Part shown: in pieces, positions 9,844 to 63,218 of the stretch
How the letters are laid out: each line of letters starts with the position of its first letter
Position numbering within the stretch: the first letter of the stretch is position 1
From: Candidatus Coatesbacteria bacterium
GTDB lineage: Bacteria; RBG-13-66-14; B26-G2; JAUVZD01
DNA length: 64,000 bases
Direction of reading: 5' to 3'
Assembly: GCA_030602715.1 (NCBI GenBank)
Contig: JAUVZD010000008.1
Location: 1 to 64,000 of the forward strand
The notes under the pieces: generated by a model
What the model was told of the DNA's origin: nothing
Seen by the model: only the letters and a program-made list of their open reading frames with translations
Database searches by the model: none
Translations under genes and position numbers: made by a program

Positions 9844-10967
9844 GGATTGCCATTGATTGCGAGCCCATTACCTGCAATATGGGGGGGATTCGGGTTTATA
9901 CAATGAATCTGGTTCGGGCTTTAGCTCGCATAGAAACGGATACCCAATTTCGCCTCTATTATAGCTTCTCCCGCAGATACCTACATACCCCGCTTACTGT
10001 CCCCAGGGAGAACTTTTCCAATATCTACAATCCCCTTCCCGCTGCAGTTATGGATTGGGCGACAGCGCACACCCCCCTCAGCCATTCATTTTTTCTGGGT
10101 TCGGTGGATGTGGTTCATTCCATCAACTTTAGATATTTTAAGTTGACCCGGGGCGAGAAGCTGGTGGTCACCATCCATGATGTCTGTTTTCTGCTCTTTC
10201 CACAATTTTTCGGTGAGGAGATGGCATCCAAGCTCAAAAGGTCGGTTGAACGGCTCCTACAAGATGCAGAATATGTCATCACCGTCTCGGAGAATACGCG
10301 GCGGGATTTCTTGGAACACTTCATCTGGCCCGAGGATAGAATTTCGGCGATTCTCGAGGGAGTGGATACTCGTATGGCGGCTGGCTTGACGCTTTCAAGA
10401 GGTGGGAGGCGAGGTATAGATGCGCCTTACATACTATCCGTGGGGACGCTGGAACCCCGAAAGAATTATTCCCGACTGTTTAGAGCCTTCTCTGAGCTGA
10501 AAAGGGAGCATAAGGAACCATTGAAATTGGTTGTGGTCGGTGGAAGAGGGTGGTTATACGGGGAGACCTTGAAGACTTGGGAGGATAGTCCGGTGAGGGA
10601 GGATATTGTCATTCTCGGTAGGGTGGAGTTTGAGCGGTTACAGGAGTTGTATAGGGGAGCGGAGTTTTTCGTCTATCCCTCGGTTTATGAGGGTTTCGGT
10701 CTGCCCATTCTGGAAGCCCAGCAGATGGGTTTGGCGGTGCTGGCGGGGGACAATTCCAGCATCCCTGAGGTGTGCGGGGATTCCGCTTTGTTGGTAAATA
10801 GCAGCAGTGAAAGGGAGATAGCCTGGGGTATGAAGAGGTTGCTTGCAGACCTTGATTTCAGGCGGATGCTGGTGGAGAGGGGGAGGGTGAATCTGGGAAG
10901 GTTCAGCTGGGATGACACCGCTCGCCGGGTTTTGGAGATCTATCGGCTTGTTGCCGGCGAGGGGTAG
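9840..10967 (+). CDS. Glycosyltransferase family 4 (GT1 superfamily)
   Basis: EGFGLPILEAQQMGLAVLAGDNSSIPEV retaining-GT4 signature. Confidence 0.8.
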   Translation: MRIAIDCEPITCNMGGIRVYTMNLVRALARIETDTQFRLYYSFSRRYLHTPLTVPRENFSNIYNPLPAAVMDWATAHTPLSHSFFLGSVDVVHSINFRYFKLTRGEKLVVTIHDVCFLLFPQFFGEEMASKLKRSVERLLQDAEYVITVSENTRRDFLEHFIWPEDRISAILEGVDTRMAAGLTLSRGGRRGIDAPYILSVGTLEPRKNYSRLFRAFSELKREHKEPLKLVVVGGRGWLYGETLKTWEDSPVREDIVILGRVEFERLQELYRGAEFFVYPSVYEGFGLPILEAQQMGLAVLAGDNSSIPEVCGDSALLVNSSSEREIAWGMKRLLADLDFRRMLVERGRVNLGRFSWDDTARRVLEIYRLVAGEG

Positions 10968-10968
10968 A

Positions 10969-12084
10969 ATGGATGTGAAATTGGAACAGGAGAGGGCGAA
11001 AGATGTCCTTGAGGGCTGGCAGTTGGTGCCCTTGGCTGTCGGTCTTATGCGCTCTATAACCGGCGGGGAGAAGTATAACCGGAGGGTGATAACGGCGTTG
11101 GAAGGACTGGGTGCAAGGCTTCGGGGCTTCGCCCCTCCAAGTTGTAACAGCCCTTTTCTGCGCCTCCTGTGGGAGATACTTTTTTGGCTCTCAAAGGTCG
11201 CGGACTTGAGCCATAGGACACTATTCTTTTTCGACTCCTCCTGCTATCTGAGTTTGTTTTTCGTTCTGCTTTATATAAGAATCTTCAAGCAAGCTAGGAT
11301 AATAACAACTGTCTATCATTTAACCAATATACTTCCAAAAAACCCAGTCAGGAGAATGGTATATCGGTTTTTTGAAGGGGGGGCTATAAGATTATCCCAT
11401 CTAATACTTACAATAAGCAACTCCACCAGGGAGGATATCCATAAGATCGCCGGTGCTTTTGTATCTCCGTTCATCGTCCCGCCGGGGATGGAGATCGTGT
11501 CTATGAAACGACGGCGTTCATATAGGACGAAATCGCCTTTCAGGATAGTCTCCCTGGGTTTTATCGCCCCCCAAAAGGGGGTTGAGACCTTGATCAAGGC
11601 GGTAGGTTTGCTGGGCGGTCTTGATGTGGAGGTGGACTGGGCGGGAGATTACTCCAGAGACCGCCGGGATTTTTACTTGAGATGCAAGGAACTTGTGGCA
11701 AAACTGGGCTTGCAGGATAGATTTCGTTTTCGGGGTTATCTCAGCCGGGAGGAGCTATCCACTCTTTTGGAGGAAGCGGACCTCTTCGTCTCTCCCTCCT
11801 CTTTGGAGGGTTACGGGATTGCCATAATTGAGGCGGCATCGTTCTCCCTCCCGCTATTGCTTTCGGATATTGCTCCATTCAGGGAATTTGCCGGCGGTGA
11901 TGCTTTGTATTTCAAACCTGGTAACTGCGAGGGATTGGCGGAGGTCATTGAGGGATTGCTGCAGAACCATAAGAAAAGGGAGCGGATGGGCAGGGCGGTC
12001 TATGAGCGTGTGGATTTTTCCTATGACTGGGACAGTATGCAGTCTATGGTCCAGGAGGTGGTAGGGGAATGGTGGAGGCGATAA
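10969..12084 (+). CDS. Glycosyltransferase family 4
   Basis: EGYGIAIIEAASFSLPLLLSDIAPFREF. Start set to ATG at 10969 (MDVKLEQ), 1 nt after the preceding stop. The ORF-track start at 10912 overlaps the upstream gene. Confidence 0.7.
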   Translation: MDVKLEQERAKDVLEGWQLVPLAVGLMRSITGGEKYNRRVITALEGLGARLRGFAPPSCNSPFLRLLWEILFWLSKVADLSHRTLFFFDSSCYLSLFFVLLYIRIFKQARIITTVYHLTNILPKNPVRRMVYRFFEGGAIRLSHLILTISNSTREDIHKIAGAFVSPFIVPPGMEIVSMKRRRSYRTKSPFRIVSLGFIAPQKGVETLIKAVGLLGGLDVEVDWAGDYSRDRRDFYLRCKELVAKLGLQDRFRFRGYLSREELSTLLEEADLFVSPSSLEGYGIAIIEAASFSLPLLLSDIAPFREFAGGDALYFKPGNCEGLAEVIEGLLQNHKKRERMGRAVYERVDFSYDWDSMQSMVQEVVGEWWRR

Positions 12085-12153
12085 TTTTACATTAGATAAT
12101 TGCGGAAGACATTAGCCGGATTTAGGTGGATTTTTTCCCCGAACGGAGTGGAT

Positions 12154-13293
12154 ATGGGAAGTGGCGAGACCAAAAAGATAAGGGTGATGCTCACTATCAC
12201 CGACCTCTCCATCGGGGGAATAGAGCTGGTCAATCTGAACCTTGCCAGGCACCTGGATAAGAGCCGGTTTGAGGTGACCCTGGTCTGCTGGCGGGGCGAG
12301 GGTCCGCTGATAAAGAGGCTGAGGGGACAGGATTTTGACCTGGTGGTCTTCGGACTTCCCCCCTGGAATTTCTTGGGCATACTGTGGCGATATTGTCGGG
12401 AGATTAGAGGAAGGCGGATTCACATATTGCACGCCAACCCCGGCTCCTTCGCAAGAATTTCCGCCGTAGCCCTCAAAGTGCCGGTGATAATCTCCTCATT
12501 TCATAGCCAGTGGCGGTTGGGATTTGTGAAATTACTACTGGACCGAACGCTCTCAAAATTCACCGACTATTTTATCGGGGTTTCTCAGGCGGTCGCCGAA
12601 CATATTAAGGCACAGCAGAAAGTAAGGGATGATAGGATAAAGGTTGTATATAATGGTGTTATTCCAGAGGAGTATGAACTCCACCCTCGGGATATTTCCC
12701 TTAAAAGCGAACTTGGGCTCGCCTATAATGCCCGTCTGGTGGGCTTTCTGGGTCGTCTCAGTTTTGAGAAAGGCGCAGACATCCTCATCCGAGCCGCCCC
12801 CGCCATACTGAGAAAACAGAGGACAGCCCATCTGGTCATCGTGGGAGACGGACCGGAGAGAGCCGACCTGGAGCGCATGGCGCAGGAGCTGGGAATTTTT
12901 AAGCGAGTCCACTTCTTGGGCTATCGCCAGGACATCCCTGAAATTCTCTCCGCACTGCATGTGGTGGCGGTTCCCTCCCGTCAAGCCGGCTTTGAACTGA
13001 TACTGGCTGAGGCTATGGCTTCCGGTGTGGTGGTGGTGGCTTCCAGAGTAGGACCCATCCCCGAGGTGATCGCCGACGGGGAGACCGGATTATTGGTGCC
13101 CCCACAGGACCACGAAGCCTTCGCAGATGCCATCATTAAACTACTGGGCCAACCCGACCGGCGAAAGAGGATGGGAGAGGCGGGCAGAGCGAGGGTCAGA
13201 GAGAGATTCTCCATCCAGAGGATGGTTTCTGAGACTGAAGCGCTCTACGAGAGACTGGTAGCGGAGAAGATGGGCGGGCGAAAGACCGCCTGA
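12154..13293 (+). CDS. Glycosyltransferase family 4
   Basis: VVAVPSRQAGFELILAEAMASGVVVVASRVGPIPEV. ATG at 12154 behind GGAG. The ORF-track start is TTG at 12100. Confidence 0.8.
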   Translation: MGSGETKKIRVMLTITDLSIGGIELVNLNLARHLDKSRFEVTLVCWRGEGPLIKRLRGQDFDLVVFGLPPWNFLGILWRYCREIRGRRIHILHANPGSFARISAVALKVPVIISSFHSQWRLGFVKLLLDRTLSKFTDYFIGVSQAVAEHIKAQQKVRDDRIKVVYNGVIPEEYELHPRDISLKSELGLAYNARLVGFLGRLSFEKGADILIRAAPAILRKQRTAHLVIVGDGPERADLERMAQELGIFKRVHFLGYRQDIPEILSALHVVAVPSRQAGFELILAEAMASGVVVVASRVGPIPEVIADGETGLLVPPQDHEAFADAIIKLLGQPDRRKRMGEAGRARVRERFSIQRMVSETEALYERLVAEKMGGRKTA

Positions 13294-13366: not shown

Positions 13367-14950
13367 CTATCCTAGGCTCCAGATTATTACCCGTGTCGCA
13401 TCCTGCCCCCGGGGTTGATAGAATTCGGAGCGGTAGAACTCCTGCTCTTTGCTCACGGTGATGTTGGCTCCGAAGCCGTCATAAACTCGGCTGGGGATGT
13501 AGAGGGAATATTGCTGGTAGTCGCCGGTGTTGACCGGATAGTCGTCGAACCAGAAGGCGTGTTGAACAAAGTAATCCACGTTGTTTTTTTGTATGTACTC
13601 CTCAAGTTGGCCGCTCCGCAGGTATTCCTGATACTCGAAGTCGTTGACAAGTCCGTCGAGATTTATGGTGGTACGTTGGGAGTAATATCCAAAGACGCCA
13701 CAGTCCTTCATGGCAAATATCGCCCCTTCAGGGGTGTTTTCGCGTGCATATATGGCGGTCTCGTATATTCTTATGGTCATTCCCATTTCGCGGCGGCTGA
13801 GGGAATAGGCTTGAGTGCCTAGTGTGGAGATAGCCGCAATAATGAACAACGCCTTCATAATAAGCATACAACCACGCTTTGATTTTAACTCTTTGAGCAA
13901 AATTAGCAATGGCATCCCGGTGCTTAATACTATAACCGGCAATAGGAAGGAGAAGGTATAGGCGAACACGCCCCATTTGACAAAGAGAAAGTTGAATGTG
14001 AGGAAGAGTAGGGAGGAGATGGCGAAAAGGGTTATGGGGATGAGGAAGCGGTCTCTTTGCTCCTGGTTGAAGTATCGTTTGCTTAAAAGAATGATAATTA
14101 TTGCGATAACGGCGAAGGCGAAGCCAGCAAAATATTCGGGGTAGGTGGTGACCATACGAAGCACTTGATTGGTGGTGCCGGAGAGGGTCCACTTCACCTT
14201 CATCTTGGAGCTGATGGTGGCGATGGTGCCGAAATTTGTGTAGTTCCAGTTCAGGAAGGGAAGTAGGCCCAGCACAACCACACTGCCGGCGAGCAGCGCT
14301 CCCAGTGAAGCGGTGGTCGGGGATTTGTGCTTACAAATGTCGATTATTAAAATGTAGGAAAGTATCACCGCGGGCAGAAAGAAGGTATCGAGCCGGGTAA
14401 GCACTAGAGCCGTCAGAAGCGCTCCCAGAAGAAGAGAATAAAGGTGCCATTTGCTAGAAAATATTTCGGAAAAAATTTTTGGCAGTAAAAATAAAATAAG
14501 CAATAACAAAAAAATAACCAATCCGCTTTCCATACCGCCGTGAAATATATGAAAGAAGCGAGGATACATAGGTATCATTAAGAGAGTTGCTATCAGGAGG
14601 GGAGGGAATACTTCCTTTGCGTTTTTCTTTATAAGGATTAGTGAGCCTAAGAAGAGCAGCGCCTGAAGAACCAAGACTATCCTGATAAGACTGACTTGTC
14701 CCAGGCCGGGTATGGCTGAAAGTAGGGTTAGAACTAGAAGCCAGAGAGGGTGGAAGCCGTTGGTCTTGTGTATGCCGTCGAAGGTGGCGCCCTTGCCAGC
14801 GGTGATATTTTGGGCAATTTTGAGATAGTAATAAGTGTCATCCTGCATTGAGGAGATCATCAGGTCGGTTGGGTGAAAGGTAAATTGCAGGGAGTAAATG
14901 AAGAGTAGGGCTATTATTCCCCAGAGAATTTTTTGCTCATACTTTTCCAA
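13367..14950 (-). CDS. Polytopic membrane glycosyltransferase, GT39/PMT_2 (ArnT/PMT-like) family. This is a tentative call.
   Basis: More than 10 TM helices. The first-loop motif DDTYYYLKIAQNITAGKG...TNGFHPLW resembles the PMT_2 DE...HPPL region. A ~150-aa soluble C-terminal domain follows. Confidence 0.45.
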   Translation of the reverse strand: MEKYEQKILWGIIALLFIYSLQFTFHPTDLMISSMQDDTYYYLKIAQNITAGKGATFDGIHKTNGFHPLWLLVLTLLSAIPGLGQVSLIRIVLVLQALLFLGSLILIKKNAKEVFPPLLIATLLMIPMYPRFFHIFHGGMESGLVIFLLLLILFLLPKIFSEIFSSKWHLYSLLLGALLTALVLTRLDTFFLPAVILSYILIIDICKHKSPTTASLGALLAGSVVVLGLLPFLNWNYTNFGTIATISSKMKVKWTLSGTTNQVLRMVTTYPEYFAGFAFAVIAIIIILLSKRYFNQEQRDRFLIPITLFAISSLLFLTFNFLFVKWGVFAYTFSFLLPVIVLSTGMPLLILLKELKSKRGCMLIMKALFIIAAISTLGTQAYSLSRREMGMTIRIYETAIYARENTPEGAIFAMKDCGVFGYYSQRTTINLDGLVNDFEYQEYLRSGQLEEYIQKNNVDYFVQHAFWFDDYPVNTGDYQQYSLYIPSRVYDGFGANITVSKEQEFYRSEFYQPRGQDATRVIIWSLG

Positions 14951-28067: not shown

Positions 28068-29030
28068 TTACTTAATGAGGATATCCCGCAAGCGCTTCAG
28101 CTCTTGCTCTGAAGCCTCCCGTCGGTCACGAGCCTGCTTCAATCTCTCCATTGCCCGCTCAATGCGGTTCTTAAGACGCATCAACCGTTCCTGCTCCGCA
28201 CCAGTGAGTAGTGGACCCAAAAGATACTGCACCGAGATTGAGAATTTTGGTTGGTCGTATTCGTCATATACCGGCACACCGGGTTGGTCTGGGTCTGTGG
28301 CCATGGGTCCCCCCCACCAGAACTGTTCAATCTCCCCGACGCCGGCAGTGATAGTAAACTTGTATGGGAGGTTGAAGCGGACACCGGCGTTGAAATCCCG
28401 TCCATCCACCTCGGCGAGAATATCAATGTAGTTATTCACATCCCACTCAAAACCGGCGAAAATTCCCTGCCAGGGGTAGGAGTGCCTCCAAGCCCCAACA
28501 AAACGCCCGGAACCGACCCCCAGATGTAACTTGATGGGGGCTTTCAGAATCGGCTCCATATCCTTGGAGGCGACGATGAAGAAGGAGTAGTTGAGGTTGT
28601 GGTAGTAATTGCTGGCATTATCTCCCCAGGAGTTGATATTGGTGTTTGGGGAGATGTCCAGCATACCGATGGAGATGCAGGGAATGCGGGAAGTTTCGTT
28701 GAGTATTTTGGCTTTGGCATATCCGCCGAATGTCTTGGGCCCGTAGTAACGCAGACCTATCTCTATGCGGTCCAACAAGCCCAGGGTAATCCAGGCATCC
28801 ATCTCCCGGAAATTTTTTCCCGGTTTATCGACATTAATAGGTTGGGAGACGATGAGGTAAGAGGATATACCTATATCTATCTCCGTGTTTTCAATGGTGT
28901 AAGCTACGGGAATGTCCAGCAATCCGCCCTGGATTTGATATCCCCCGAAGACTGCATTGGGCGCCAGGAGAGCGGTAAAAAATACCACAGCATAAACCGT
29001 AAAGACTTCTGGCTGGTGAATTTTGTTCAA
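28068..29030 (-). CDS. Hypothetical envelope protein: beta-strand-rich Gly/Tyr/Trp-rich body (outer-membrane-like) with a C-terminal coiled coil. First gene of the TPR operon.
   Basis: Signal-like N-terminus. Alternating aromatic/Gly beta-strand pattern. C-terminus ERLMRLKNRIERAMERLKQARDRREASEQELKRLRDILIK. Confidence 0.45.
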   Translation of the reverse strand: MNKIHQPEVFTVYAVVFFTALLAPNAVFGGYQIQGGLLDIPVAYTIENTEIDIGISSYLIVSQPINVDKPGKNFREMDAWITLGLLDRIEIGLRYYGPKTFGGYAKAKILNETSRIPCISIGMLDISPNTNINSWGDNASNYYHNLNYSFFIVASKDMEPILKAPIKLHLGVGSGRFVGAWRHSYPWQGIFAGFEWDVNNYIDILAEVDGRDFNAGVRFNLPYKFTITAGVGEIEQFWWGGPMATDPDQPGVPVYDEYDQPKFSISVQYLLGPLLTGAEQERLMRLKNRIERAMERLKQARDRREASEQELKRLRDILIK

Positions 29031-30765: not shown

Positions 30766-31284
30766 TTGAGCCGACGGATTATACACACAAACGTTGGGGT
30801 GGAGTTGGGCTCTGTTGAGGTCTATTATACACCTGCAGGTGAAGTGGTCTATATCGTCTTAGGGGAGGGTGGGGATTTCTTCGCTTGGAGCAGGCGCCAG
30901 GGCTTTGAGGTTGAACTGGAGAGTGGTGCGGAAGATGACCTGCCTGTCCGTGAGTTGAAGGAATATTTCTCCGGCAGGAGACGATACTTCCAGAGCCCGC
31001 TTCCTATGCGAGGCACCCCCTTCCAGCGCAGGGTCTGGCTGGAGGGCTTACACATACCATTCGGTGAGACCGTCTCTTACGGTGAGTTATCCAGGAGGGT
31101 ATTCTCTTCCTCCCCGGGTAGTCCTAGGGCTGTCGGTCAGGCTCTGGCGGCTAACCCGGTCCCCATAATCGTTCCCTGCCATAGGGTGCTGGCAAAGGAT
31201 GGCGGGCTTGGCGGTTTCGGCGGAGGGCTGAAGTGGAAAAGGTATCTTCTGGACCTGGAGGGGGCTTATTACAAGGAAGATTAG
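30766..31284 (+). CDS. ogt: Methylated-DNA--protein-cysteine methyltransferase (Ogt/MGMT)
   Basis: IPCHRVL active-site motif and the GETVSYGELS helix. Confidence 0.8.
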   Translation: MSRRIIHTNVGVELGSVEVYYTPAGEVVYIVLGEGGDFFAWSRRQGFEVELESGAEDDLPVRELKEYFSGRRRYFQSPLPMRGTPFQRRVWLEGLHIPFGETVSYGELSRRVFSSSPGSPRAVGQALAANPVPIIVPCHRVLAKDGGLGGFGGGLKWKRYLLDLEGAYYKED

Positions 31285-31894: not shown

Positions 31895-34552
31895 ATGGTA
31901 TCTTCAACCACTAGTAATAAGTATTGTAGTTCTACTGACCTCACTAATGAGGCGAGCGTCGAAGCGTTTTTTGTACTTCGGCTTTTATCCGATTTAGGAT
32001 ATGAAGACGCCGAAATCAAAACTAAGGAAGCTATAGGGACTCTTAGCGTACCGAGGGGCCGGGATAAGGAATTATATAAGCCGGACTTCCTGATGGTGTG
32101 CTACGAAAAGCCCCGTTGGTTAATCGACGCCAAGTCAACCAAAGAACGTATTGAAAACTATACCTATCAATGCGCCGGGTATTCTCTTGAAATTAATAAA
32201 AAATATGAAGACCGACCTCTTCGTTATTATATGCTTACGAACGGACTCTTAACCCGAGTTTATGTTTGGGACCAAGAAGAAGCAGTTTTATCTTTGCGAT
32301 TCAAGGATTTCGTTGATGGTAACTCAAAATATGAAGCGATAAAAAAACTCCTACTCGCCAATAACGCTCGTAATGGGTGGACAATTACGCCAAGTACCCG
32401 TATTAAGGTGATTGCTTTAAAACGTCCGGCAATGGATGTGGTCAAACGTGCTTTCCTGCGTTGTCATAGGATTATTTGGAAAGCAGAGAAAATGAGTCCG
32501 CAAGCGGCTTTTGAGGAATTCGCTAAAATTCTATTTGTAAAATTATGGGAAGACCGACGACTTCGGGATGATTCCGCGTTAATGGCTATGATTAGTAAAG
32601 GCGAACCTTTGCCTATCGATAAAGTAAGGTTTACTAAACATTGGATTAAGGAGCAGGAGGCGAATAATACGAACCCCTTAGATACGTTACTCTTTAAGCA
32701 ATTAGTAGATTCGTTAGAGCGCGAGATTAATTTAAAGAAGAGGAAAAGGATATTTGAGCCGAACGAAAAGCTAAACGTATCACCGGGAACCGTACGCCGC
32801 GTCGTTAAGGAATTAGAAGGTTATTACCTATTCGGTATCGACGAGGATTTAAACGGGAGGATGTTTGAGGCTTTTCTCACCGCGACTATGCGTGGCAAAG
32901 AATTAGGGCAATATTTCACCCCGCGAAGCATTGTAAAATTGATGACGAAACTGGCGAAGCTCAAAGCACAACCGGGGGCAAACAATATTGAGAATGTTAT
33001 CGATGCTTGTTGTGGAACGGGAGGGTTTTTAATAGAAGCACTAACCGAAATGCGGCGCCAATTGTGGGATAACCAGTCGCTCTCAAATACTCAAAGGGAA
33101 GAACTACTTGATGTAGTTTCCAATAAAGCTATACTTGGAATCGATGTGGGCCGTGGTCCAGTAATTGCGCGTATAGCGCGGTTAAATATGTATCTTCACG
33201 GTGATGGTGGTAACAAGGTATATATGACAGACGCGCTTAAAGACCCACCGGAACCATCCCCAGCCGATTCGATTGAAGTGAAGGGAGAGGTCGAAGAACT
33301 ACGCGGCCTTTTAGCTAACGGTTTAAGATTTGATGCGGCGTTAACGAATCCACCGTTTTCGATGGATTACTCTTCTGACGACCCAGAAGAAAAGGTAATT
33401 CTTGATACATATGATTTGACTACCTATGGGGGGAAACGCAAGAATTCCTTGAGGTCGTCCGTTCTTTTTATAGAACGCTATTACGATTTACTGCGTCCGG
33501 GTGGTCGTCTTCTTACTGTTATCGATGACAGTATCCTTGCCGGTAAACCCTTTCCGTTTGTTCGTGATTTTATTAGGGAACGATTTATTATAAAGGCAAT
33601 AATTAGCTTGCACGGGGATGCTTTTCGTCGTTCGGGATCGAGGGCGAAAACATCTATTCTTTATTTAATAAAGAAAAACGACCCTTCTGAAGTACAACCA
33701 AGTTGTTTCGTTTATGAAACCCAATATGTTGGCCGTGATGACGTTCCTACTAAAACGAGGATTAGCAATGCCGAGAAAGCGAGGAGTCTCGCTGGCAATG
33801 AAATAAACGAGATAACTACATCTTTTGATTCTTTTCTTCGGGGCGAAGCTGGGCCTTGGTTGGTTCCCGCCTCTTCTTTAACCGAAAGACTCGATGCTAA
33901 ACACCTTCGTCCCTGGTCTGTATCGGAACTCGAAAAGGATTGGGAAGCTCACGGTATACCTTCAGATATTATTGGGAATCTATTTGACCCAATTGAAGAA
34001 GAAGTATCACTCGAACCAGATACGAGATATACGTTTCTTCGTATTACTTATGAAGGACGACCCGAACGCGGTGATACAGCTTTAGGTAAAGAAGTGTCTT
34101 ACCAAAAGATGTATAGGGCGAGGGTTGGAGATATTGTTATCAGTACTATTAATGCTGTGCATAAGGCGATTTGCGTAATGCCAGAAGTATTGGATGACCT
34201 TTTAATTTCACCGGCATTTATCGTACTACGGCTAAAGGATTCTAAAGTCGGCGATATAGACCCAGCGTACGTATGGTCGGTTCTTCGTACCCCTGCAATC
34301 GTGGCAGAATGGTTGTCTCATACGACCGGATTCGGGCGACATTATGTTGATTGGAATATTATCCGTGACCAACGTATTCCGCTACTTCTTGCGGATAAAC
34401 AGCTGGCTATCGGGAATATGATTCGTGAATTATTCCGATACGAGCAAGAAATATCTGTGAAGAAAGACGCGGCGGAGGATATGTTAGCTGGTCTTGGTTT
34501 AAATGATAGTCGCGCCAAAGACCGCCTTGCCAAAGCTAAACCTCCGCAATAA
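31895..34552 (+). CDS. Single-polypeptide restriction-modification enzyme (Type IIG-like). It fuses an N-terminal HSDR_N-type PD-(D/E)xK nuclease, an HsdM-like gamma-class N6-adenine methyltransferase, and a C-terminal HsdS-like target-recognition domain.
   Basis: PD-(D/E)xK: KPDFLMV...WLIDAKSTKE...QCAGYS...YYMLTNG. MTase motif I: VIDACCGTGGFLIEA. Motif IV: FDAALTNPPFS. GQYFTPRSIV as in HsdM. C-terminal ~250 aa are TRD-like. Strong AAGGAGG SD. The gene is ~43% GC against ~58% in the flanks. Confidence 0.7.
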   Translation: MVSSTTSNKYCSSTDLTNEASVEAFFVLRLLSDLGYEDAEIKTKEAIGTLSVPRGRDKELYKPDFLMVCYEKPRWLIDAKSTKERIENYTYQCAGYSLEINKKYEDRPLRYYMLTNGLLTRVYVWDQEEAVLSLRFKDFVDGNSKYEAIKKLLLANNARNGWTITPSTRIKVIALKRPAMDVVKRAFLRCHRIIWKAEKMSPQAAFEEFAKILFVKLWEDRRLRDDSALMAMISKGEPLPIDKVRFTKHWIKEQEANNTNPLDTLLFKQLVDSLEREINLKKRKRIFEPNEKLNVSPGTVRRVVKELEGYYLFGIDEDLNGRMFEAFLTATMRGKELGQYFTPRSIVKLMTKLAKLKAQPGANNIENVIDACCGTGGFLIEALTEMRRQLWDNQSLSNTQREELLDVVSNKAILGIDVGRGPVIARIARLNMYLHGDGGNKVYMTDALKDPPEPSPADSIEVKGEVEELRGLLANGLRFDAALTNPPFSMDYSSDDPEEKVILDTYDLTTYGGKRKNSLRSSVLFIERYYDLLRPGGRLLTVIDDSILAGKPFPFVRDFIRERFIIKAIISLHGDAFRRSGSRAKTSILYLIKKNDPSEVQPSCFVYETQYVGRDDVPTKTRISNAEKARSLAGNEINEITTSFDSFLRGEAGPWLVPASSLTERLDAKHLRPWSVSELEKDWEAHGIPSDIIGNLFDPIEEEVSLEPDTRYTFLRITYEGRPERGDTALGKEVSYQKMYRARVGDIVISTINAVHKAICVMPEVLDDLLISPAFIVLRLKDSKVGDIDPAYVWSVLRTPAIVAEWLSHTTGFGRHYVDWNIIRDQRIPLLLADKQLAIGNMIRELFRYEQEISVKKDAAEDMLAGLGLNDSRAKDRLAKAKPPQ

Positions 34553-36518: not shown

Positions 36519-37811
36519 TTGAGAAGGATTGTAATCCTCGCTTGGGTAGCATTCGCCTTGCTACTTGCTTCGTGTTCCAGTAACGACGATTCTCCCATAG
36601 GATTTGACTGGGTGGGTTGGGACTCCCCGGTATATACCGTAATTCTATACCCCGATGCATCCTGGCAGGATACTTACTTTGACTGTTATGTCAACACCGG
36701 ACGTTCTCTGCGCCTGCTGGTGGGTCGCTTTGACCACTATCTATATCGCTCGTTGATTATGTTCCGTCCCCAGGATTTGGAATTCGGTTCCGCCAACGAC
36801 ATCACCTGCGCCAAGATCAGCTTCGCCATGGAGAGAGAGGTGGGGTTGCTCAACGATGCGGTTTATAACCAGGGGAGTCTGGAGATAGAGGTCGCCCCGC
36901 TCTATGTGGATTGGCTGGAGGACGCCGCCAGTTGGTATCACGCCGACCATTACACCCCCTGGGATGGGGGGATATTCGGTCCGCCGCAGGGAATCGCTCT
37001 TGCCGGCGAAGCCACCGAGGAGATTACCTATGTAGATATTGAGATTACCGACATGTGCCGGGATTGGGTTGCCGACCCTAACTCCAATCATGGGGTCATC
37101 GTCATGGCTCGGGATGAGAGCCGGGAGGTGGTCAAGGAATTTTATTCCCTGGATATCCTCACCCGTGAGGGAGTTCCCAAGTTGATAATAGAGTATCAGG
37201 AGGATGGGGAGAAGAAGAAGGTCAGTATTCCCCCGGCAATAGATTGTTTCATCACCACCTCGGATGAGCGCTTTTTTGACGACGATATACCCGGATACAA
37301 CGAGGAAATTATGGTCGGTGGTTTCAACGGTTATTCCTACCGGGCGATGATGTATTTTGATTTGAGCCAGGAAACCACTTTCATCCCCAGGGACGCCACC
37401 ATCGTCCTGGCGGAGCTCAAGCTCTATTATAAACCCGGCTCCAAAGCGGATGAGTCACTCATCCGAGCCTATGTGCTGGATCAGGCCTTTGATGAGTCTA
37501 TGAACCGGGGGACTTTGGCTTCTCTGCAATTCAATACCTCAACCTCCTACGGAGAGATGGATATTGAAGGCGCTCCTGAGGGATTTCTGGGCATCTTCAT
37601 AAATCAGATGGTTCAGGGCTGGATAAGCGGTTCCTTAAATAACTACGGGCTGCTGTTGATGGCGGATGGGGAATATCTGGATTCCACCTGTCACATTGAA
37701 TTCTCAAGCACCGACAATTCCAACCCATCTTACTGGCCTTATCTGTTGGTCAAGTTCACCCTGCCCCCCGGTTATCCCCCCGATTGGATGATGGCTAATG
37801 ACTCTCTCTAG
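36519..37811 (+). CDS. Secreted lipoprotein with two tandem beta-sandwich (carbohydrate-binding/DNRLRE-like) modules
   Basis: Lipobox LLLASC. The repeated pattern NHGVIVMARDESRE / NNYGLLLMADGEYLDS ... YLLVKF occurs twice. Confidence 0.5.
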   Translation: MRRIVILAWVAFALLLASCSSNDDSPIGFDWVGWDSPVYTVILYPDASWQDTYFDCYVNTGRSLRLLVGRFDHYLYRSLIMFRPQDLEFGSANDITCAKISFAMEREVGLLNDAVYNQGSLEIEVAPLYVDWLEDAASWYHADHYTPWDGGIFGPPQGIALAGEATEEITYVDIEITDMCRDWVADPNSNHGVIVMARDESREVVKEFYSLDILTREGVPKLIIEYQEDGEKKKVSIPPAIDCFITTSDERFFDDDIPGYNEEIMVGGFNGYSYRAMMYFDLSQETTFIPRDATIVLAELKLYYKPGSKADESLIRAYVLDQAFDESMNRGTLASLQFNTSTSYGEMDIEGAPEGFLGIFINQMVQGWISGSLNNYGLLLMADGEYLDSTCHIEFSSTDNSNPSYWPYLLVKFTLPPGYPPDWMMANDSL

Positions 37812-39027
37812 GGCGATTGCTCTGAAGCTTGTGGGATTAGCCCTGGTAGCAATTTTAGCTCTGTCGCTCTCCACCGCATCTGCCAACACCTTGCTCAACA
37901 TAGACCAGATGGGTGAGCCTTTTCTCGCCTATGAAGCCCGAGCCATAGCAATGGGCAACGCTTGCATCGCCTTATATGACGGTGCCAATACCTCCTTGCT
38001 CAACCCGGCATGCAGTGCTCAGCTATCCACCACTATGTTCAACGCCACCTATCTCCGTTATCAGACCAGATACTCCCTCTATGGACAGGAGAGCGCAGTG
38101 GTGGAACATAATCTGCCCAATATCTCCTTCACCGCCTTCATTCCTAAAATAGAGTTACCGGTAACCGTGGGACACCGCACCTATTATGATTGGGGCATAA
38201 AGGTGGCCCAGCCCCTGATAGTGGAGGGGGAGGAGGTGGGGGAGGAGTGGTATATCGGTAAGGGCAGTCTTAACTGCTTCTCGGTCGCCAGTGCGCGCAG
38301 TCTTTTGCCCTGGATGAGCCTGGGCTTGCGTCTGGACTACTATTTCGGCGCTCCGAAGGAGGCTTGGATCAAGGATTTTTCAAGTGATTATTATACCGAT
38401 GTGAGGGATGTTCTTGAACACCGGATGCACGGGGCAAGCTTCACCGTCGGCGCGGTGGGCAGTATGGGTATGGGGCTGGATGTGGGCTTCTTCTATCAGC
38501 ACAAAGCCAAGCTGGATGTGGAGGATACCGTAACCAGCAACTTCGGGGTGGTAGCCGAAGATTCTTATACCCTTACCTATCCAGCGAGGATGGGGTTCGG
38601 CATTGCTTATCATTCCTTCCCCTGGCTCACCGCCGCCATAGATGTAATCCACACCCGCTGGAGTGGTTTTGAGAGTGGGAACCAGGAGTTTGATTTTCAG
38701 AGCACCACCGAATTCCACGGGGGGGTGGAGATAGTTCCCAGCCAGAACCCCAAGTCGTTCAAGCTACTGCGACTGCCCTATCGGGCGGGGTTTTATTATA
38801 TTCCCTGGTATGGTGCTGACCCCGGCGGGGGTCGGTATAGCGAGGTCGGTTTTACCTTCGGAATGGGCTATCTTTTTGGGCAGAATGAGAACTCACGGGT
38901 GGATGTAGCCTTTGAGTTCGGTCGGCGAGGCGGAGGTGACCTGGACCTGCAAGAGGATATATTCAGGCTTTACTTCTCGGTCAGTGCCCTGGAGAAGTGG
39001 CTGGGTAAGTTCACCAAGGAAGATTGA
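37798..39027 (+). CDS. Outer-membrane beta-barrel of the PorV/FadL-like superfamily
   Basis: Signal peptide. N-terminal conserved segment EARAIAMGNACIALYDGANTSLLNPA resembles the GARAxGMGxAxxAxxDDxSAxxWNPAGL motif of PorV/FadL-type barrels. C-terminal aromatic residue. 14-nt overlap with the upstream lipoprotein gene. Confidence 0.5.
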   Translation: MTLSRAIALKLVGLALVAILALSLSTASANTLLNIDQMGEPFLAYEARAIAMGNACIALYDGANTSLLNPACSAQLSTTMFNATYLRYQTRYSLYGQESAVVEHNLPNISFTAFIPKIELPVTVGHRTYYDWGIKVAQPLIVEGEEVGEEWYIGKGSLNCFSVASARSLLPWMSLGLRLDYYFGAPKEAWIKDFSSDYYTDVRDVLEHRMHGASFTVGAVGSMGMGLDVGFFYQHKAKLDVEDTVTSNFGVVAEDSYTLTYPARMGFGIAYHSFPWLTAAIDVIHTRWSGFESGNQEFDFQSTTEFHGGVEIVPSQNPKSFKLLRLPYRAGFYYIPWYGADPGGGRYSEVGFTFGMGYLFGQNENSRVDVAFEFGRRGGGDLDLQEDIFRLYFSVSALEKWLGKFTKED

Positions 39028-45473: not shown

Positions 45474-46496
45474 GTGAAAGTTGGTCAGGTTATGTCTGAG
45501 GTGGTAAAGGAGGGTGAAAGTAGCGCAGAAGGGGCAGGCGTTGACGATATCTGGGGATGGGTGATAGGCGAGTTCCTGGATTATATGGGGGAGGTGCGCA
45601 GGGTCTCGCCGGCGACCGTAAAAGCCTACAGGTGCGACCTGACCCAATTTGCCGATTTCATCTCCGAATATCAGCCGGGGATTACTTTACAGGAGATAGA
45701 CCACATCGCCCTGCGTCACTTCCTAGCCTACCGGCGCGAAAAGGGGGTAGGCGCTCGCTCAATCTCTCGCCAGCTGTCCGCCCTGCGCAGGTTCTTTCGC
45801 TTCCTGCGCCTCCAGGGGCTGATAGATGTTGACCCCACCAAGAGATTGGACTCGGTGCGCTATCAACGAAAACTCCCCCAGACGGTGCAGACCCCACAGG
45901 AGATGGAAGCCTTCATCTCCGCCGTGCGAAAGATGCCCAGGAGGGAGCATGAGTTGAAGGAGGCGCTGATTGTCCGGGATATAGCCATTCTGCAATTTCT
46001 ATACGGAATGGGTCTGCGCAGTGCCGAGCTGGTGGCGTTGGATGTTGGGGATGTGGGAGAGGATTTCGTGCGGGTTAAGGGAAAGGGCGATAAGGAGCGG
46101 ACGGTGCCCATAGGGAAGAGGAGCAGGAGGGCTTTTGAGGAATACATCGCTCTGCGGGAGAAGCTCACCGGGGAGGCGGGTGGTCCTCTCTTCGTCTCCG
46201 TGAGGGGTAAACGACTTAACACACGCTTTATCCGTAAGTTATTTACACGGTTAGTGCGCTTTCTGGGGAAGGAGAGGATAACTCCCCACACCCTGCGCCA
46301 CACCTTTGCCACTCATCTTTATGAGCATGACGCCGACCTGCGAGATATTCAGGAACTGCTGGGTCATGAGAGTATAGACACCACCGATGTTTATACCCAT
46401 GCCAGCGTAGCCAAGCTGAAGGAGAAGTATGATAAAGCCCATCCCCACGGGGGGAAGGGTGGGAAATCGGAGGGGGAAAGCGAGGAAGAGGGCTGA
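45474..46496 (+). CDS. xerC: Tyrosine site-specific recombinase XerC/XerD family (CodV-like)
   Basis: [27 protein letters not shown]...Y catalytic box. Chromosomal context is topA-trmFO-xerC-hslVU. Confidence 0.85.
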
Positions 46497-58031: not shown

Positions 58032-59357
58032 ATGGATAAAATCTACAAGGAGCTAACCGCAAAGATTGAAGCCAGAGACGCCCTTGTGGGTGTCATCGGC
58101 TTGGGCTATGTGGGTCTGCCCCTGGCTATGGAGTTCGGCAGAGCCGGGTTCACCGTCTTGGGCTTTGATACCAACCCCCAACTGGTTGAGCGTTTCAACG
58201 CCTCCGACTGTTACATCGGTCAGGTTGATGAGGGGTTGTTCACCCGGCTGATAGGTGACGGTCATATGTCGGCTACAGGCGACATGGCTCGTCTGGGGGA
58301 GCAGAATGTATTGTGTATATGTGTTCCCACGCCACTGGATAAGCATCGGGAGCCGGATATGACCTTTATCGTCAACACCTGCAAGACTTTGGCTGAGCAC
58401 CTGCGTTCCGGTCAGTTGGTGATTCTTGAATCCACCACCTACCCCGGAACCACCCGGGAGTTGATTAAGCCCCTGCTGGAGGGTAGCGGTCAATCAGTGG
58501 GCGAGGATTTCTTTCTTGCCTATTCCCCGGAACGGATTGACCCCGGCAACAAGGATGTGAAACTGCGCCAGATTCCCAAGGTAGTGGGGGGGATGACAGA
58601 ACGCTGCACTAATCTGGCAAGAGTCCTTTACTCTGCGGTCTTTGATGAGGTCTATGAGGTCTCCTCCCCTGAGGTGGCGGAGATGTCCAAGCTGTTGGAG
58701 AATATATTTCGTTCGGTCAATATCGCCCTGGTCAACGAGATGAAGATGCTCGCCGACCGAATGGGGTTGGACATATGGGAGATAATCCTGGCGGCGGCGA
58801 CCAAACCCTTCGGGTTCCAGCCCTTCTATCCCGGACCGGGGCTGGGAGGGCATTGCATACCCATAGACCCCTTCTATCTCACCTGGAAGGCGAGGCAGTA
58901 TGACTTTCCCACCCGCTTCATTGAGCTTGCCGGACAGATAAATACCAGTATGCCCGATTATGTGGTCAGCCGAACGATGGATGCGTTGAATGAGCGCCGT
59001 ATCTGCTTGAACGGCAGCCGTATTCTGGTGCTGGGGGTGGCTTATAAGCCGAATATTGACGATATGCGGGAGAGTCCGGCGGTGCGCATTATGGAGATAC
59101 TGCAGGAACATGGGGCGGTGGTGGATTATAACGACCCCTATATTCCCAGGATAGCCGACCAGCGTCAGACCGACTTGCGCAAGGAGTCCATTCGGCTCTC
59201 GGAGAAGACATTGGGGGAATACTCGGCGGTTATTATAGTAACCGACCACAGCGATTATGACTTCCAGTGGATAGTTGAGAATTCCCGACTGGTGATTGAT
59301 ACCCGCAATGCCACCCGGGAAGTGGAGGGTTACGAGGACAAGATAGTCCGTGCCTGA
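58032..59357 (+). CDS. Nucleotide-sugar dehydrogenase (UDP-GlcNAc/UDP-ManNAc 6-dehydrogenase family)
   Basis: VIGLGYVGLPLAMEFGRAGFTVLGFD NAD-binding motif. Catalytic GGHCIPID. Confidence 0.8.
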   Translation: MDKIYKELTAKIEARDALVGVIGLGYVGLPLAMEFGRAGFTVLGFDTNPQLVERFNASDCYIGQVDEGLFTRLIGDGHMSATGDMARLGEQNVLCICVPTPLDKHREPDMTFIVNTCKTLAEHLRSGQLVILESTTYPGTTRELIKPLLEGSGQSVGEDFFLAYSPERIDPGNKDVKLRQIPKVVGGMTERCTNLARVLYSAVFDEVYEVSSPEVAEMSKLLENIFRSVNIALVNEMKMLADRMGLDIWEIILAAATKPFGFQPFYPGPGLGGHCIPIDPFYLTWKARQYDFPTRFIELAGQINTSMPDYVVSRTMDALNERRICLNGSRILVLGVAYKPNIDDMRESPAVRIMEILQEHGAVVDYNDPYIPRIADQRQTDLRKESIRLSEKTLGEYSAVIIVTDHSDYDFQWIVENSRLVIDTRNATREVEGYEDKIVRA

Positions 59358-59377
59358 TTTTTTGAGAGGGGAGACGG

Positions 59378-59800
59378 TTGAACAACGCCAAGGCTTTGTT
59401 TGAGCAGGGCTTCAATTGAGCGGAGTCCATACTCCTGGGAGTTGCCCGGGACATAGGAACGGAATCGCCACATTTTCCCCACCTTGCCACCCCTTTCGGC
59501 GGGGGTATGGGGCGCAATCAGATGATGTGCGGGGCTTTGACCGGTGGGGTTATGGTCATAGGACTGCTTTTTGGCAGAAATTCAGGCGGTGGGGAGAAGG
59601 ATAAAGCTTACAGCAGTGTGGACGCCCTCTTCAATGCCTTTAGGGAGAAATTCGGCAATCTGGGTTGTCGGGAGTTGATTGAGGTGGACCTGCGAAGCGA
59701 GGAGGGGCAAAGACTCTATCACGAACGCAATCTTCACTCGGAGAAGTGCTCCCAGTATGTCGCTTTTGTCGCCGACTGGTTGTTGAGCCTAAAGAGATGA
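59378..59800 (+). CDS. C_GCAxxG_C_C-family redox protein with an in-frame TGA (59417-59419) at the first conserved Cys position. This is a candidate selenocysteine protein.
   Basis: TTG start behind GGGGAG. Translation: LNNAKALFEQGFN-[TGA]-AESILLGVARDIGTESPHFPHLATPFGGGMGRNQMMCGALTGGVMVIGLLFG...LGCRE...EKCSQYV. Family motifs GFNC, FGGGMG, CGAxxG, C and C are all present except that the first C is TGA. The ORF track calls only the 3' 97 codons (59507-59800). Confidence 0.5.
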
Positions 59801-59810
59801 GCAGATACTT

Positions 59811-60776
59811 ATGGGTATGGCGAAGCAAAGAGTTATTTTAGTGACCGGGGGTGGTGGTTTCATCGGCAGATGGGTGGTCAGAAGACTTCTCGCCGAGGAA
59901 CGCAAGGTGGTGGTGGTGGACAACTTCTCCAACGCAAGCCCCAGCAACCTTGCTGGGTTTGAGGGGGATGAGAACCTTCTTGCGATACACAGGGAGGATA
60001 TCCGCTGGCGGGAGTTTATGACCGCTCTTTTTGATGAGTATAGGTTCTCCCTCTGTATCCACCTGGCCGCATCCATCAGTGTGCAGGACTCCATTGACCA
60101 CCCCTTGAGCACCTTTGATAACGACACCGTTGCAACCCTCCATCTCCTTGAGCTCTGCAGGCAGCACGAAACCCCCTTCGTCTTCACCTCCACCTGTCTG
60201 GTTTACGATACTTTTGACGGCACAGATGCCATTAGTGAGGAACATCCCGTAAAACCTCATTCACCTTACTCGGCGAGCAAGCTCTCCGCTGAGGCTTTAG
60301 CCCTCTCCTATCACCAGACCTACGACCTTCCGGTCACTGTCCTTCGCCCCTTCAATACCTACGGACCCTTCCAGCGTTCCACGGGAGAGGGGGGCGTGGT
60401 GGCGACCTTTCTTCATAGGGCGCTCGCCGGTGAATCGCTATTGGTCTATGGCGACGGCGAGCAGAGCCGGGACTTGCTCTATGTGGAGGACTGTGCAGAC
60501 TTTATCGTCTCCTCCGCCTTCCAGGAGAGGGCGGTGGGACGGATAATTAATGCAGCCAGCGGCAGAGAGACCAAGATCAACGAGCTGGCGGAGATGATAG
60601 CCGAGGGAAAGGTTGCCATAGAGCATGTGCCTCACATCCATCCCCGAAGCGAGGTGGGGCGTCTGAAGGGGAGCTATGTTCTTGCAGAGGAGCTTCTGGG
60701 ATGGAAGCCGGTGGTGGATTTGGAGGAAGGCATCGCCCGCACCCGGGATTATATCGCCGGGGAGCTGGAGGGGTGA
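59811..60776 (+). CDS. NAD-dependent epimerase/dehydratase (SDR family, UDP-sugar epimerase-like)
   Basis: VTGGGGFIGRWVV Rossmann motif. YSASK catalytic motif. Confidence 0.8.
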   Translation: MGMAKQRVILVTGGGGFIGRWVVRRLLAEERKVVVVDNFSNASPSNLAGFEGDENLLAIHREDIRWREFMTALFDEYRFSLCIHLAASISVQDSIDHPLSTFDNDTVATLHLLELCRQHETPFVFTSTCLVYDTFDGTDAISEEHPVKPHSPYSASKLSAEALALSYHQTYDLPVTVLRPFNTYGPFQRSTGEGGVVATFLHRALAGESLLVYGDGEQSRDLLYVEDCADFIVSSAFQERAVGRIINAASGRETKINELAEMIAEGKVAIEHVPHIHPRSEVGRLKGSYVLAEELLGWKPVVDLEEGIARTRDYIAGELEG

Positions 60777-61981
60777 TGAGGTCCGCAAAGCTTCCAGCGA
60801 TTGAAGGCGGTGCGCCGATCAGGGAGGAATACCTCCCCTATGGAAAACATTGGATAAGCCCCGAGGAGGTGGAGTCGGTCTGCGAGGTGCTCCGGGGGGA
60901 TTGGCTGACCACGGGACCGGAGGTGGGTTTGTTGGAGGGGGAACTGGCGGATTATCTCGGTGCACGCTGGGTGCGGGCGGTAAACTCCGGCACCGCCGCC
61001 CTCATCTGCGCTGTGGGGGGGTTGGGGTTGGGTGAGGGGGATGAGGTCATCACCAGCCCGCTCTCCTTTGCCGCTTCAACCAACTGCGTCCTCTTTCACG
61101 GTGCAAAGCCGGTCTTTGCCGATATCTCCCTGGAGAACGGTTACTGCCTGGACCCGGAGTCGGTAGCTGGGGCTGTCACCAAAAGGACCCGGGCAATACT
61201 TGTGGTCCATTACGGCGGTTTTGTTGCCGATATGGTGGCTATCGGCGAAATAGCTGAGGAGAATGGACTTTTAGTAATAGAGGATACAGCTCATGCATTA
61301 GGGGCGGTTCAGGAGGGGCGGATGGCGGGAACCTTCGGTGATGCCGGCTGTCTATCCTTTCATCCGGTCAAACACATCGCCGCCGGTGAGGGGGGCGCGG
61401 TAGTGTCTTCCTCAGAGGAGCTTGCCCGCTTCACCGAGCTTTACCGCAACCAGGGGTTATCCACCACCACTTATCAGCGGCAGGTGGAGCGGAAGATTCA
61501 TCATTACGATGTGATTATGTTGGGCTATAACTTCCGCATCTCAGACATCCACGCACGGTTGGCTCGGGAACAGCTGAAGCGCCAGCCCGGGTTTGTCGCT
61601 CGCCGAAGGGAGCTTGCCCAAAGTTACGACGAAGCCTTTGCGGACCACGAGGGCATCATTCCTCCTCCGCCGGCAAGCGAGCACGGGGGCAGTTATCATC
61701 TCTATCCTGTGCGGATTATCCCGGAGAGATGGCGGATTGAGCGGGACCATCTACTCCAGGCTCTACGCACTGAGGGTATAGGTGCTACCCTGCATTATCC
61801 CCCCATCCACCTTCTGCAATATCATCGTCAGTTGTTGGGCTATAAGTCGGGTGATTTTCCCAATGCGGAAGCCGCTGCAGCGACGCTTCTAACTATACCC
61901 CTCTTTCCTAGGATGAGCGACGAGGACCGGGATGATGTCATCTCGGCGCTGGAGAAGCTGTGGGAATATTATAAGAGATGA
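60776..61981 (+). CDS. DegT/DnrJ/EryC1/StrS-family PLP-dependent sugar aminotransferase
   Basis: The ATG overlaps the preceding TGA (ATGA). DWLTTGPEV...AVNSGTAAL...SFHPVKHIAAGEGG with the PLP lysine region. Confidence 0.85.
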   Translation: MRSAKLPAIEGGAPIREEYLPYGKHWISPEEVESVCEVLRGDWLTTGPEVGLLEGELADYLGARWVRAVNSGTAALICAVGGLGLGEGDEVITSPLSFAASTNCVLFHGAKPVFADISLENGYCLDPESVAGAVTKRTRAILVVHYGGFVADMVAIGEIAEENGLLVIEDTAHALGAVQEGRMAGTFGDAGCLSFHPVKHIAAGEGGAVVSSSEELARFTELYRNQGLSTTTYQRQVERKIHHYDVIMLGYNFRISDIHARLAREQLKRQPGFVARRRELAQSYDEAFADHEGIIPPPPASEHGGSYHLYPVRIIPERWRIERDHLLQALRTEGIGATLHYPPIHLLQYHRQLLGYKSGDFPNAEAAAATLLTIPLFPRMSDEDRDDVISALEKLWEYYKR

Positions 61982-62177: not shown

Positions 62178-63218
62178 ATGACAATATTTTCCGGCTATAG
62201 GGTAGCATTTCGTGTGGATGGCGGGGAGGAGATTGGCTGGAGTTCCTTCAATCGTTGCTGTGCTCTGGCTTACGAGCTGGAGAACTATTTTGGGTGCAAG
62301 GTGGGTTTCTTCTCTTCAATTGAGGGTGAGCCGCCCTGGGGAGAACCACGATGGTCGCTGGTGACTCCACCTGAGGATATGAGTGTCTGGCAGGAGGGTC
62401 GGTGGCTTTCCTGGGAGACCGAGGTGGGAGGATACGACGGGATTGTCGTTGATGTCCGCAGGGATTTGGACTCGCTGTGTAAGCCTTTGATAAAGAGCGG
62501 ATTTGTGGTGGTGGTTATTGATGAGGATTACCGGGGCATAGTCCCCTCACATCTGGTGGTAAATGCTTCCATAGTTGAGGATCCTCAAGGCTATCATCCA
62601 TTCAATAGAGAACAGTTGTTCCTACTCGGTCATCGCTACATCATTTTGCGCCCCAAGTTCGGTGGGGAGAGGGACAGAATTGTCAAAGAAAGAGCGGAAC
62701 ATCTAGTGGTCTCGCCCGGTAGGGGTTATCCTCCTGCGGTCTGGGGGAGGGCTATACGCCAGGCGGTGGAGAAGGGCGGTATGAAGCGCATCTCTATATT
62801 TACTGAGCGGTCTCATTCCCTGGAGGATTTTGAGGTAGCAGAATTTTCATCGGATATTGATTTTCACTCCGGGCTGGAGGACCCCTCAAGGGTCATGGCT
62901 GGCGGTGATATCGCTCTGTGCGGGGGTGGGACTACTTTGTTTGAGTATATCTCCCTGGGGGTTCCCGCGGTGGCGATAACCGCCATACCTGGCGAGATTA
63001 AGGAAGCGGAGGCTTTAGCCTCTCAGGGAGCATGTGTTGCCCTTACCTATTCATTTGCGCCGGAGCGGGTGGGGATAGCGGTAAAGACGCTCGCCGACCG
63101 AATTGATGTTCGTCGGTTGATGAGTGCGTATGGTGCGGCGCTGATTGACGGGGGTGGGCGGGAGAGGGTGGCGCTGACTGTAGTAGAAATTTTGAGGAGG
63201 GAAAAGGGCTCTGGTTAG
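62178..63218 (+). CDS. PseG/SpsG-like UDP-sugar hydrolase/transferase (GT28 C-terminal-like fold)
   Basis: N-terminus VAFRVDGGEEIGWSSFNRCCALAYEL and C-terminus GDIALCGGGTTLFEYISLGVPAVAI resemble PseG / spore-coat SpsG family patterns. Confidence 0.45.
   Translation: MTIFSGYRVAFRVDGGEEIGWSSFNRCCALAYELENYFGCKVGFFSSIEGEPPWGEPRWSLVTPPEDMSVWQEGRWLSWETEVGGYDGIVVDVRRDLDSLCKPLIKSGFVVVVIDEDYRGIVPSHLVVNASIVEDPQGYHPFNREQLFLLGHRYIILRPKFGGERDRIVKERAEHLVVSPGRGYPPAVWGRAIRQAVEKGGMKRISIFTERSHSLEDFEVAEFSSDIDFHSGLEDPSRVMAGGDIALCGGGTTLFEYISLGVPAVAITAIPGEIKEAEALASQGACVALTYSFAPERVGIAVKTLADRIDVRRLMSAYGAALIDGGGRERVALTVVEILRREKGSG

Follow-up and report, generated by a model that had tools for sequence, protein, structure and literature searches.

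An in-frame UGA at an invariant cysteine position of a C_GCAxxG_C_C family gene: a likely selenocysteine codon with a downstream SECIS-type hairpin

The window analysed here is a 64-kb stretch of DNA from a metagenome-assembled NCBI contig of 136,896 bp. On its plus strand, positions 58032-61981 hold a UDP-glucose/GDP-mannose dehydrogenase gene, the candidate selenoprotein gene that is the subject of this report, an NAD-dependent epimerase gene and a DegT-type aminotransferase gene, and the same order is found in the closely related locus L001. The candidate gene is tightly packed between its neighbours. Its TTG start lies 20 nt beyond the stop of the dehydrogenase gene (58032-59357), and its end lies 10 nt before the epimerase gene (59811-60776). 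The features of the locus, together with a selenium-related gene elsewhere in the window, are:

59367-59373 (+): Shine-Dalgarno-like AGGGGAG, 4 nt before the TTG; identical in loci L001 and L002
59378-59800 (+): predicted coding sequence of a C_GCAxxG_C_C family selenoprotein of 140 residues, with selenocysteine (Sec) as residue 14; from the translation, PF09719, TIGR01909 and the fit between neighbours
59417-59419 (+): in-frame TGA, probably read as Sec, at the first of four invariant cysteines; aligned with C14, and the same codon in L001, L002 and at least 89 family genes elsewhere
59433-59451 (+): predicted SECIS upper stem-loop; -11.6 kcal/mol, in the minimum free energy (MFE) fold, agreeing with four model criteria, same geometry in 29 TGA-form clusters
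59426-59458 (+): possible extended SECIS with a 3-bp lower stem and a 4x4 internal loop; MFE and centroid folds, -14.4 kcal/mol
59507-59800 (+): truncated 97-codon ORF of the public gene calls (JGI, Logan and NCBI records)
209-796 (-): YedF, a sulfurtransferase-like selenium metabolism protein (TIGR03527)

Direct reading of the sequence placed the start codon TTG at 59378-59380 and the terminal TGA stop at 59798-59800. The frame is closed upstream by an in-frame TGA (59363-59365), and the TTG is the first start codon after it. A preliminary description, made from the DNA letters, had proposed this start with a Shine-Dalgarno sequence, and both the purine run and the translation were found as it had described. 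On the plus strand, 59378-59800 reads LNNAKALFEQGFN-TGA-AESILLGVARDIGTES...FGGGMGRNQMMCGALTGG...LGCRE...EKCSQYV...LKR-stop; with other segments of the product written out, it is LNNAKALFEQGFN-TGA-AESILLGVARDIGTESPHFPHLATPFGGGMGRNQMMCGALTGG...LGCRE...EKCSQYVAFVADWLLSLKR-stop. The mechanical ORF list and all public calls (JGI, Logan and NCBI) contain only the 97-codon ORF from ATG 59507. We attribute the 97-residue fragment in public records to gene callers that treat the UGA as a terminator and take the following ATG, 59507, as the start.

Family membership was assessed with curated profiles, with U translated as C. The product matched PF09719 (Pfam) at 99.8 bits (cut-off 27) over model positions 1-115 of 118 and TIGR01909 (NCBIfam) at 71 bits (cut-off 47.4) over positions 1-117 of 120. 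On its own, the 97-residue ORF (59507-59800) scored 68.1 bits against PF09719 and matched from model position 33 onward, so the standard call does discard the conserved N-terminal 43 codons, as the preliminary description had stated. Alignment with 25 Cys-containing homologues (33-44% identity) revealed invariant N13, C14, A15, G41-43, C51, G52, A53, C97 and C124, with C51-G52-A53..G56 forming the CGAxxG motif. In the window product, Cys stands at C51, C97 and C124, and TGA stands at position 14. That every family hallmark is present apart from the first cysteine, and that TGA takes the place of this residue, had both been claimed beforehand; the two profiles and the alignment agree on each point. 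The domain is matched in full above the curated cut-offs, and the four cysteine positions, FGGG and CGAxxG are all in place, with the TGA aligned to the invariant C14. The in-frame UGA is thereby paired with the Cys of the homologues, which are 33-47% identical to the product and, in all Cys forms examined, carry TGC or TGT at the aligned codon. These data indicate that 59378-59800 is very probably one intact 140-codon gene that public annotation has cut to 97 codons.

Selenium-containing forms of this family are known. TIGR01909 carries the NCBI name 'C-GCAxxG-C-C family (seleno)protein', and the family is listed among selenoprotein families in reviews from 2022 and 2026 (PMC9312934 table; PMC13188914). 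The latter lists its selenoproteins as 'form 1' and 'form 2', with MGD8741185.1 (form 1) and WP_012158890.1 (form 2) as catalogued example proteins. The window product shares with the family the same full-length domain, the four Cys positions and the CGAxxG motif, as well as a single Sec per protein and Sec/Cys pairs among homologues; structurally, nothing distinguishes it. The window copy stands apart in its uncultured lineage and in its setting within a cluster of nucleotide-sugar genes, and it scores only modestly even against the best-matching TGA forms of the family. The gene is an ordinary, previously uncatalogued member of a family with known selenium-containing forms, and the finding leaves selenocysteine biology unchanged.

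Two other families with a homologous domain gave partial matches. The HUGP/GUXX-star fusion selenoprotein (NF045501), which has a C_GCAxxG_C_C-type domain, matched at 62.2 bits, far below its cut-off of 325, and only over profile positions 13-153 of 236. The DVU_1555 family C-GCAxxG-C-C protein (NF045669) matched at 52.1 bits against a cut-off of 103. With both scores below the curated cut-offs, the product was assigned to neither NF045501 nor NF045669. The product consists of one domain, 140 residues long, and lacks both a fusion partner and a C-terminal GUxx motif.

The TGA could in principle be an error of sequencing or assembly in place of a true TGC or TGT codon, from which it differs by one base, and the source is a metagenome-assembled contig. 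Positions 59358-59520 were identical in a Logan assembly (SRR14872667), although this assembly and the source contig may have been built from the same reads. The TGA is also retained in an independent JGI contig, which comes from a different sample (3300029813) and shares 98% identity over the gene. This contig differs elsewhere: it has five substitutions in the stretch from the TGA to the ATG, and three of them are synonymous in the frame. The 90%-identity cluster of the 97-residue fragment has 11 members, drawn from JGI, ENA, Logan and NCBI. Their called lengths are 97 or 92 aa, so none of the 11 starts before the internal ATG. An error would have to recur in relatives from many samples, all truncated at the same place, and we consider its probability negligible.

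To look beyond close relatives, we scanned GTDB species representatives with a DNA pattern, TGA-GCN-SAR, gap, FGGG, gap, CGA, which required only motifs downstream of the TGA. This TGA-anchored pattern had one match in the window and none in 100 shuffles. At least 120 loci (L003-L122) matched, of which at least 89 are family genes (phmmer E <= 1e-3) with TGA at the first-Cys codon. TGA-containing orthologs, whose presence had been suggested as a check on the selenoprotein proposal, were thus recovered from at least 89 genomes in addition to the JGI contig. Residues upstream of the TGA, a region outside the search pattern, were conserved among the 89 listed family matches (G in 77, F/Y in 72 and N in 76). 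In 88 of these 89, the upstream frame stayed open over 15 codons or more, and the exception starts at a locus edge. Neither the conserved upstream residues nor the open frame was seen in the 31 non-family matches among those listed. Labels of the TGA-form metagenome-assembled genomes (MAGs) included Syntrophaceae, Thermodesulfobacteriota, Dehalococcoidia, Anaerolineae, Nitrospirota, Clostridia, Syntrophomonadaceae, Coatesbacteria and Armatimonadota, among others. Most such taxa are anaerobic, and the use of Sec is common among them. Given this recurrence, together with the conserved upstream residues and open frames, we conclude that TGA at the first-Cys codon is a widespread, selected state of the family.

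A separate scan of metagenomes supplied control loci; among the matches listed, relatives were at most 47% identical and almost all were Cys forms, a proportion that gives no unbiased Sec/Cys frequency because one of the two search patterns contained Cys. One metagenome relative (L143:354-767) has an in-frame stop in a different motif, RRQH-stop-SEAVLL, so that H-U-S-E replaces F-N-U-A-E, and may represent a further variant of the Sec form.

The same data bear on whether the 97-residue ORF is the real product, with the preceding 43 codons serving as a leader. In a variant of this explanation both proteins would be made, with the short form prevailing under low selenium. Position 59507 does hold an ATG, which is the start adopted by all public gene calls. 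Decoding of UGA by SelB is inefficient, so some termination at codon 14 is to be expected. Against this, a short product would lack Pfam model positions 1-32, and with them an invariant Cys as well as the near-invariant FGGG motif. The supposed 'leader' of 129 nt keeps the reading frame, fits the family and varies in L001 mostly at synonymous sites. A Shine-Dalgarno-like purine run precedes 59378, while none precedes 59507, and the upstream residues are conserved across at least 89 genomes. We therefore judge a 97-residue product very unlikely and favour the full 140-codon gene.

Reassignment or general read-through of TGA (e.g. as Trp or Gly, as in genetic codes 4 or 25) deserved consideration because the host lineage is poorly known and some uncultured lineages recode TGA. 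However, TGA terminates 21 of 60 selected window ORFs at lengths typical of their families, among them the candidate gene itself, the dehydrogenase upstream of it and GatB. No further window gene requires read-through of a TGA to reach full length, and Trp or Gly at the invariant Cys would be unprecedented in the alignment. With TGA serving as an ordinary stop in 21 of the 60 ORFs, we regard reassignment as ruled out for practical purposes.

A Sec codon in bacteria is expected to be followed by a SECIS element. In the published model (PMC13188914 Fig. 2A), an apical loop of 3-9 nt sits on a stem of 4-16 bp, the loop has a G within its first two positions, usually followed by G or U, the UGA-to-loop distance is 16-37 nt and the MFE is -7.5 kcal/mol or lower. 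The window contains such a hairpin at 59433-59451, UCCUGGG [AGUUG] CCCGGGA, with 7 bp including one G-U pair and a 5-nt loop. The loop begins 20 nt after the UGA and has G at its second position, followed by U. The hairpin has a free energy of -11.6 kcal/mol with pair probabilities of 0.95-1.0, is also present in the MFE fold, and agrees with the model on all four criteria. A lower stem of 3 bp (59426-59428 with 59456-59458), separated by a 4x4 internal loop, brings the total to -14.4 kcal/mol in both MFE and centroid folds. The element resembles the bacterial SECIS consensus (Zhang and Gladyshev, bSECISearch; PMC13188914 Fig. 2A) in being a coding-region stem-loop just 3' of the UGA. Its sequence is dissimilar to those of the E. 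coli elements, of which fdhF is the best-studied case, as is usual for bacterial SECIS elements.

The preliminary description had pointed to a different hairpin, GGAGU-CCAU-ACUCC. This structure can form at 59422-59435, but at -5.8 kcal/mol it has an ensemble pairing probability of 0, and we abandoned it as the SECIS. It lies too near the UGA, its loop does not start with G, and it shares bases with the stronger hairpin at 59433-59451. Folding of 59417-59480, which had been put forward as a check, produced the model-conforming hairpin at 59433-59451 but no extra stability for the 64 nt after the UGA relative to dinucleotide shuffles (z = -0.03). Against synonymous shuffles, the z of the window gene was only -1.1. 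Rfam searches returned no match on the whole window at the gathering threshold or on 59390-59500 at E <= 10. As the window fold taken alone is statistically unremarkable, the case for the hairpin rests on its geometry and on comparative data.

For this comparison, we used 88 TGA-form genes and 63 Cys-form genes from metagenome loci. The region from +4 to +51 nt had an MFE of -14.8 kcal/mol in the TGA forms versus -11.5 kcal/mol in the Cys forms, at a GC content of 0.54 in both. Relative to synonymous-codon shuffles that kept the protein and codon usage, TGA forms had a z of -1.23 and Cys forms one of 0.00 (Mann-Whitney p = 1.2e-10). The best simple hairpin averaged -8.75 kcal/mol in TGA forms and -3.57 kcal/mol in Cys forms. 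Its loop started at a median of +24 (quartiles 23-28) in TGA forms, whereas loop starts in Cys forms were scattered, and G occupied one of the first two loop positions in 97% of the former and 52% of the latter. The pattern persisted when one gene was taken per cluster (29 clusters, 55% identity): these representatives averaged -9.19 kcal/mol, with 90% of loops at +20 to +31 and 97% with G, and differed from the Cys forms at p = 1.5e-10. They include many different stem sequences with the same geometry. Both the RNA sequence and the peptide that it encodes vary, yet the hairpin structure persists.

Other offsets in the same TGA-form genes served as a further control. Three of the four gave about -3 kcal/mol, and offset +90 gave -6.0 kcal/mol. 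The region from +90 to +155 nt after the UGA, which codes for FGGGMG...CGA, is thus more structured (-6.0 versus about -3 kcal/mol at the three later offsets), which probably reflects GC-rich glycine codons. RNAalifold predicted no pairs on an ungapped alignment of 89 sequences. The hairpin centre varies by lineage, at about +24, +26 or +28, and because the register differs in this way we relied on per-sequence hairpin statistics with Cys-form and offset controls. The UGA and the hairpin were conserved together in other genomes, and the hairpin was absent from the Cys forms. The SECIS hairpin cleanly tracks the UGA in the paired TGA and Cys forms, a set that might be used to benchmark the prediction of bacterial SECIS elements.

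These comparisons also address the possibility that the TGA is a nonsense mutation that inactivated a former Cys gene, leaving an N-terminal part that yields nothing functional. An in-frame stop 13 codons into a gene does resemble such a mutation, and Sec machinery was not seen within the 64-kb window. Nevertheless, the TGA is kept in the independent 98%-identical contig, and in the fragment cluster all 11 calls start at the internal ATG or further on. It occurs at exactly the same codon in at least 89 other genomes (29 clusters) with conserved upstream residues and open frames, and a hairpin at a specific position is found with TGA and not with TGY. Nonsense mutations arising independently would not repeatedly strike one codon, nor would they be accompanied by an RNA structure, and a pseudogene is highly improbable.

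Taken together, the invariant-Cys position, the recurrence in at least 89 genomes, the SECIS-type hairpin and the contrast between TGA and Cys forms uphold the original proposal of a candidate selenoprotein, and each of the alternatives named with it (sequencing error, nonsense pseudogene and codon reassignment) is contradicted by the evidence above. On sequence evidence, we estimate a probability of roughly 0.9 that the TGA at 59417-59419 is a real Sec codon. The arrangement of a UGA at the invariant Cys with a SECIS-type hairpin downstream recurs across many genomes. In the mechanism we propose, codon 14 of the mRNA (UGA, 59417-59419) would be decoded as Sec. The stem-loop at 59433-59451 would form in the mRNA, with its apical loop starting 20 nt past the UGA and containing G-U. 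By its likeness to bacterial SECIS elements, this hairpin would be expected to bind SelB, which would bring Sec to the UGA while competing with release factor 2. Sec substitutes for a functional Cys in nearly all selenoproteins. Here it would replace the first of the four invariant cysteines and probably contribute to a redox or metal-binding centre with C51, C97 and C124.

The practical value of this reading lies in annotation, since restoring the Sec codon would give the correct protein and the corrected annotation would add a selenoprotein to an uncultured lineage. In every source, the cluster of the window gene is represented by a truncated fragment; for this reason, many of the at least 89 TGA-form genes, which are mostly in MAGs, are probably mis-annotated in the same way.

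Evidence for selenium use in the window came from the gene at 209-796 (-), which the preliminary description had singled out as YedF-type. TIGR03527 identified it as a full-length equivalog at 200.5 bits (cut-off 110) over profile positions 2-193 of 194, which settles the assignment. NCBI names TIGR03527 a selenium metabolism protein. The gene is not physically linked to 59378-59800 and is a general marker of selenium use, not one specific to Sec decoding. Across genomes, the presence of YedF tracks that of selD. ARAGORN found no tRNA gene, and hence no tRNA-Sec, in the 64-kb window. Neither the 50 window ORFs (Pfam/NCBIfam) nor the Pfam annotation of the right-hand part, taken from a Logan contig that falls inside the window, included selA, selB or selD. 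No other convincing in-frame-TGA or selenoprotein gene was detected in the window.

When GatB was compared with 5.8 billion proteins, clusters were found at 96%, 72% and 71% identity, followed by others at 57% or less. From these identities, the host appears to be an uncultured, deep-branching bacterium. A rubrerythrin-like gene in the window and the taxa in which TGA forms occur would both fit an anaerobe.

For the family itself, annotation goes no further than a putative redox-active protein. A PDB sequence search with the product gave no match. An AF2 model of the Cys homologue P0006 was all-helical with a pLDDT of 94, and a fold search of this model against the PDB gave no match (best E = 1.1). 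The tight packing of the gene among sugar genes, with gaps of 20 and 10 nt, raises the prospect of a redox role in nucleotide-sugar or cell-envelope synthesis. If the lineage is unrecorded as Sec-decoding, the gene would also extend the known range of Sec use. We offer both suggestions tentatively and consider them rather unlikely. Across the lineages with TGA forms, no neighbouring gene was shared, and this includes the context seen in the window. In 20 mutually related Syntrophaceae/Thermodesulfobacteriota loci (e.g. L061:6052-7048), the same strand carries, about 0.7 kb further downstream, an ORF of about 330 residues that presumably encodes a tryptophanyl-tRNA synthetase. This synteny looks lineage-specific and not like a functional link.

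Several other genes in the window were recorded. Five ORFs of 320-527 codons had no Pfam match at E <= 1e-6: 1446-2855 (-), 13367-14950 (-), 28068-29030 (-), 37798-39027 (+) and 62178-63218 (+). The first of these, 1446-2855 (-), had no NCBIfam match either. An uninterrupted 172-codon ORF at 30766-31284 (+) belongs to a family with selenoprotein forms listed in PMC13188914. At 8897-9843 (+), an HTH_3 (XRE-type) regulator is followed by an IrrE/ImmA-like M78 peptidase, and directly downstream of this pair are three consecutive family-4 glycosyltransferases (9840-13293). An N6-adenine DNA methylase-domain protein of 885 aa is encoded at 31895-34552 (+). Finally, a XerC/D-type tyrosine recombinase at 45474-46496 (+) adjoins DprA, a putative topoisomerase I ORF and a GidA-family gene. 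The ORF beside the recombinase is presumed to be topoisomerase I, and in view of these three neighbours the recombinase is probably a housekeeping enzyme.
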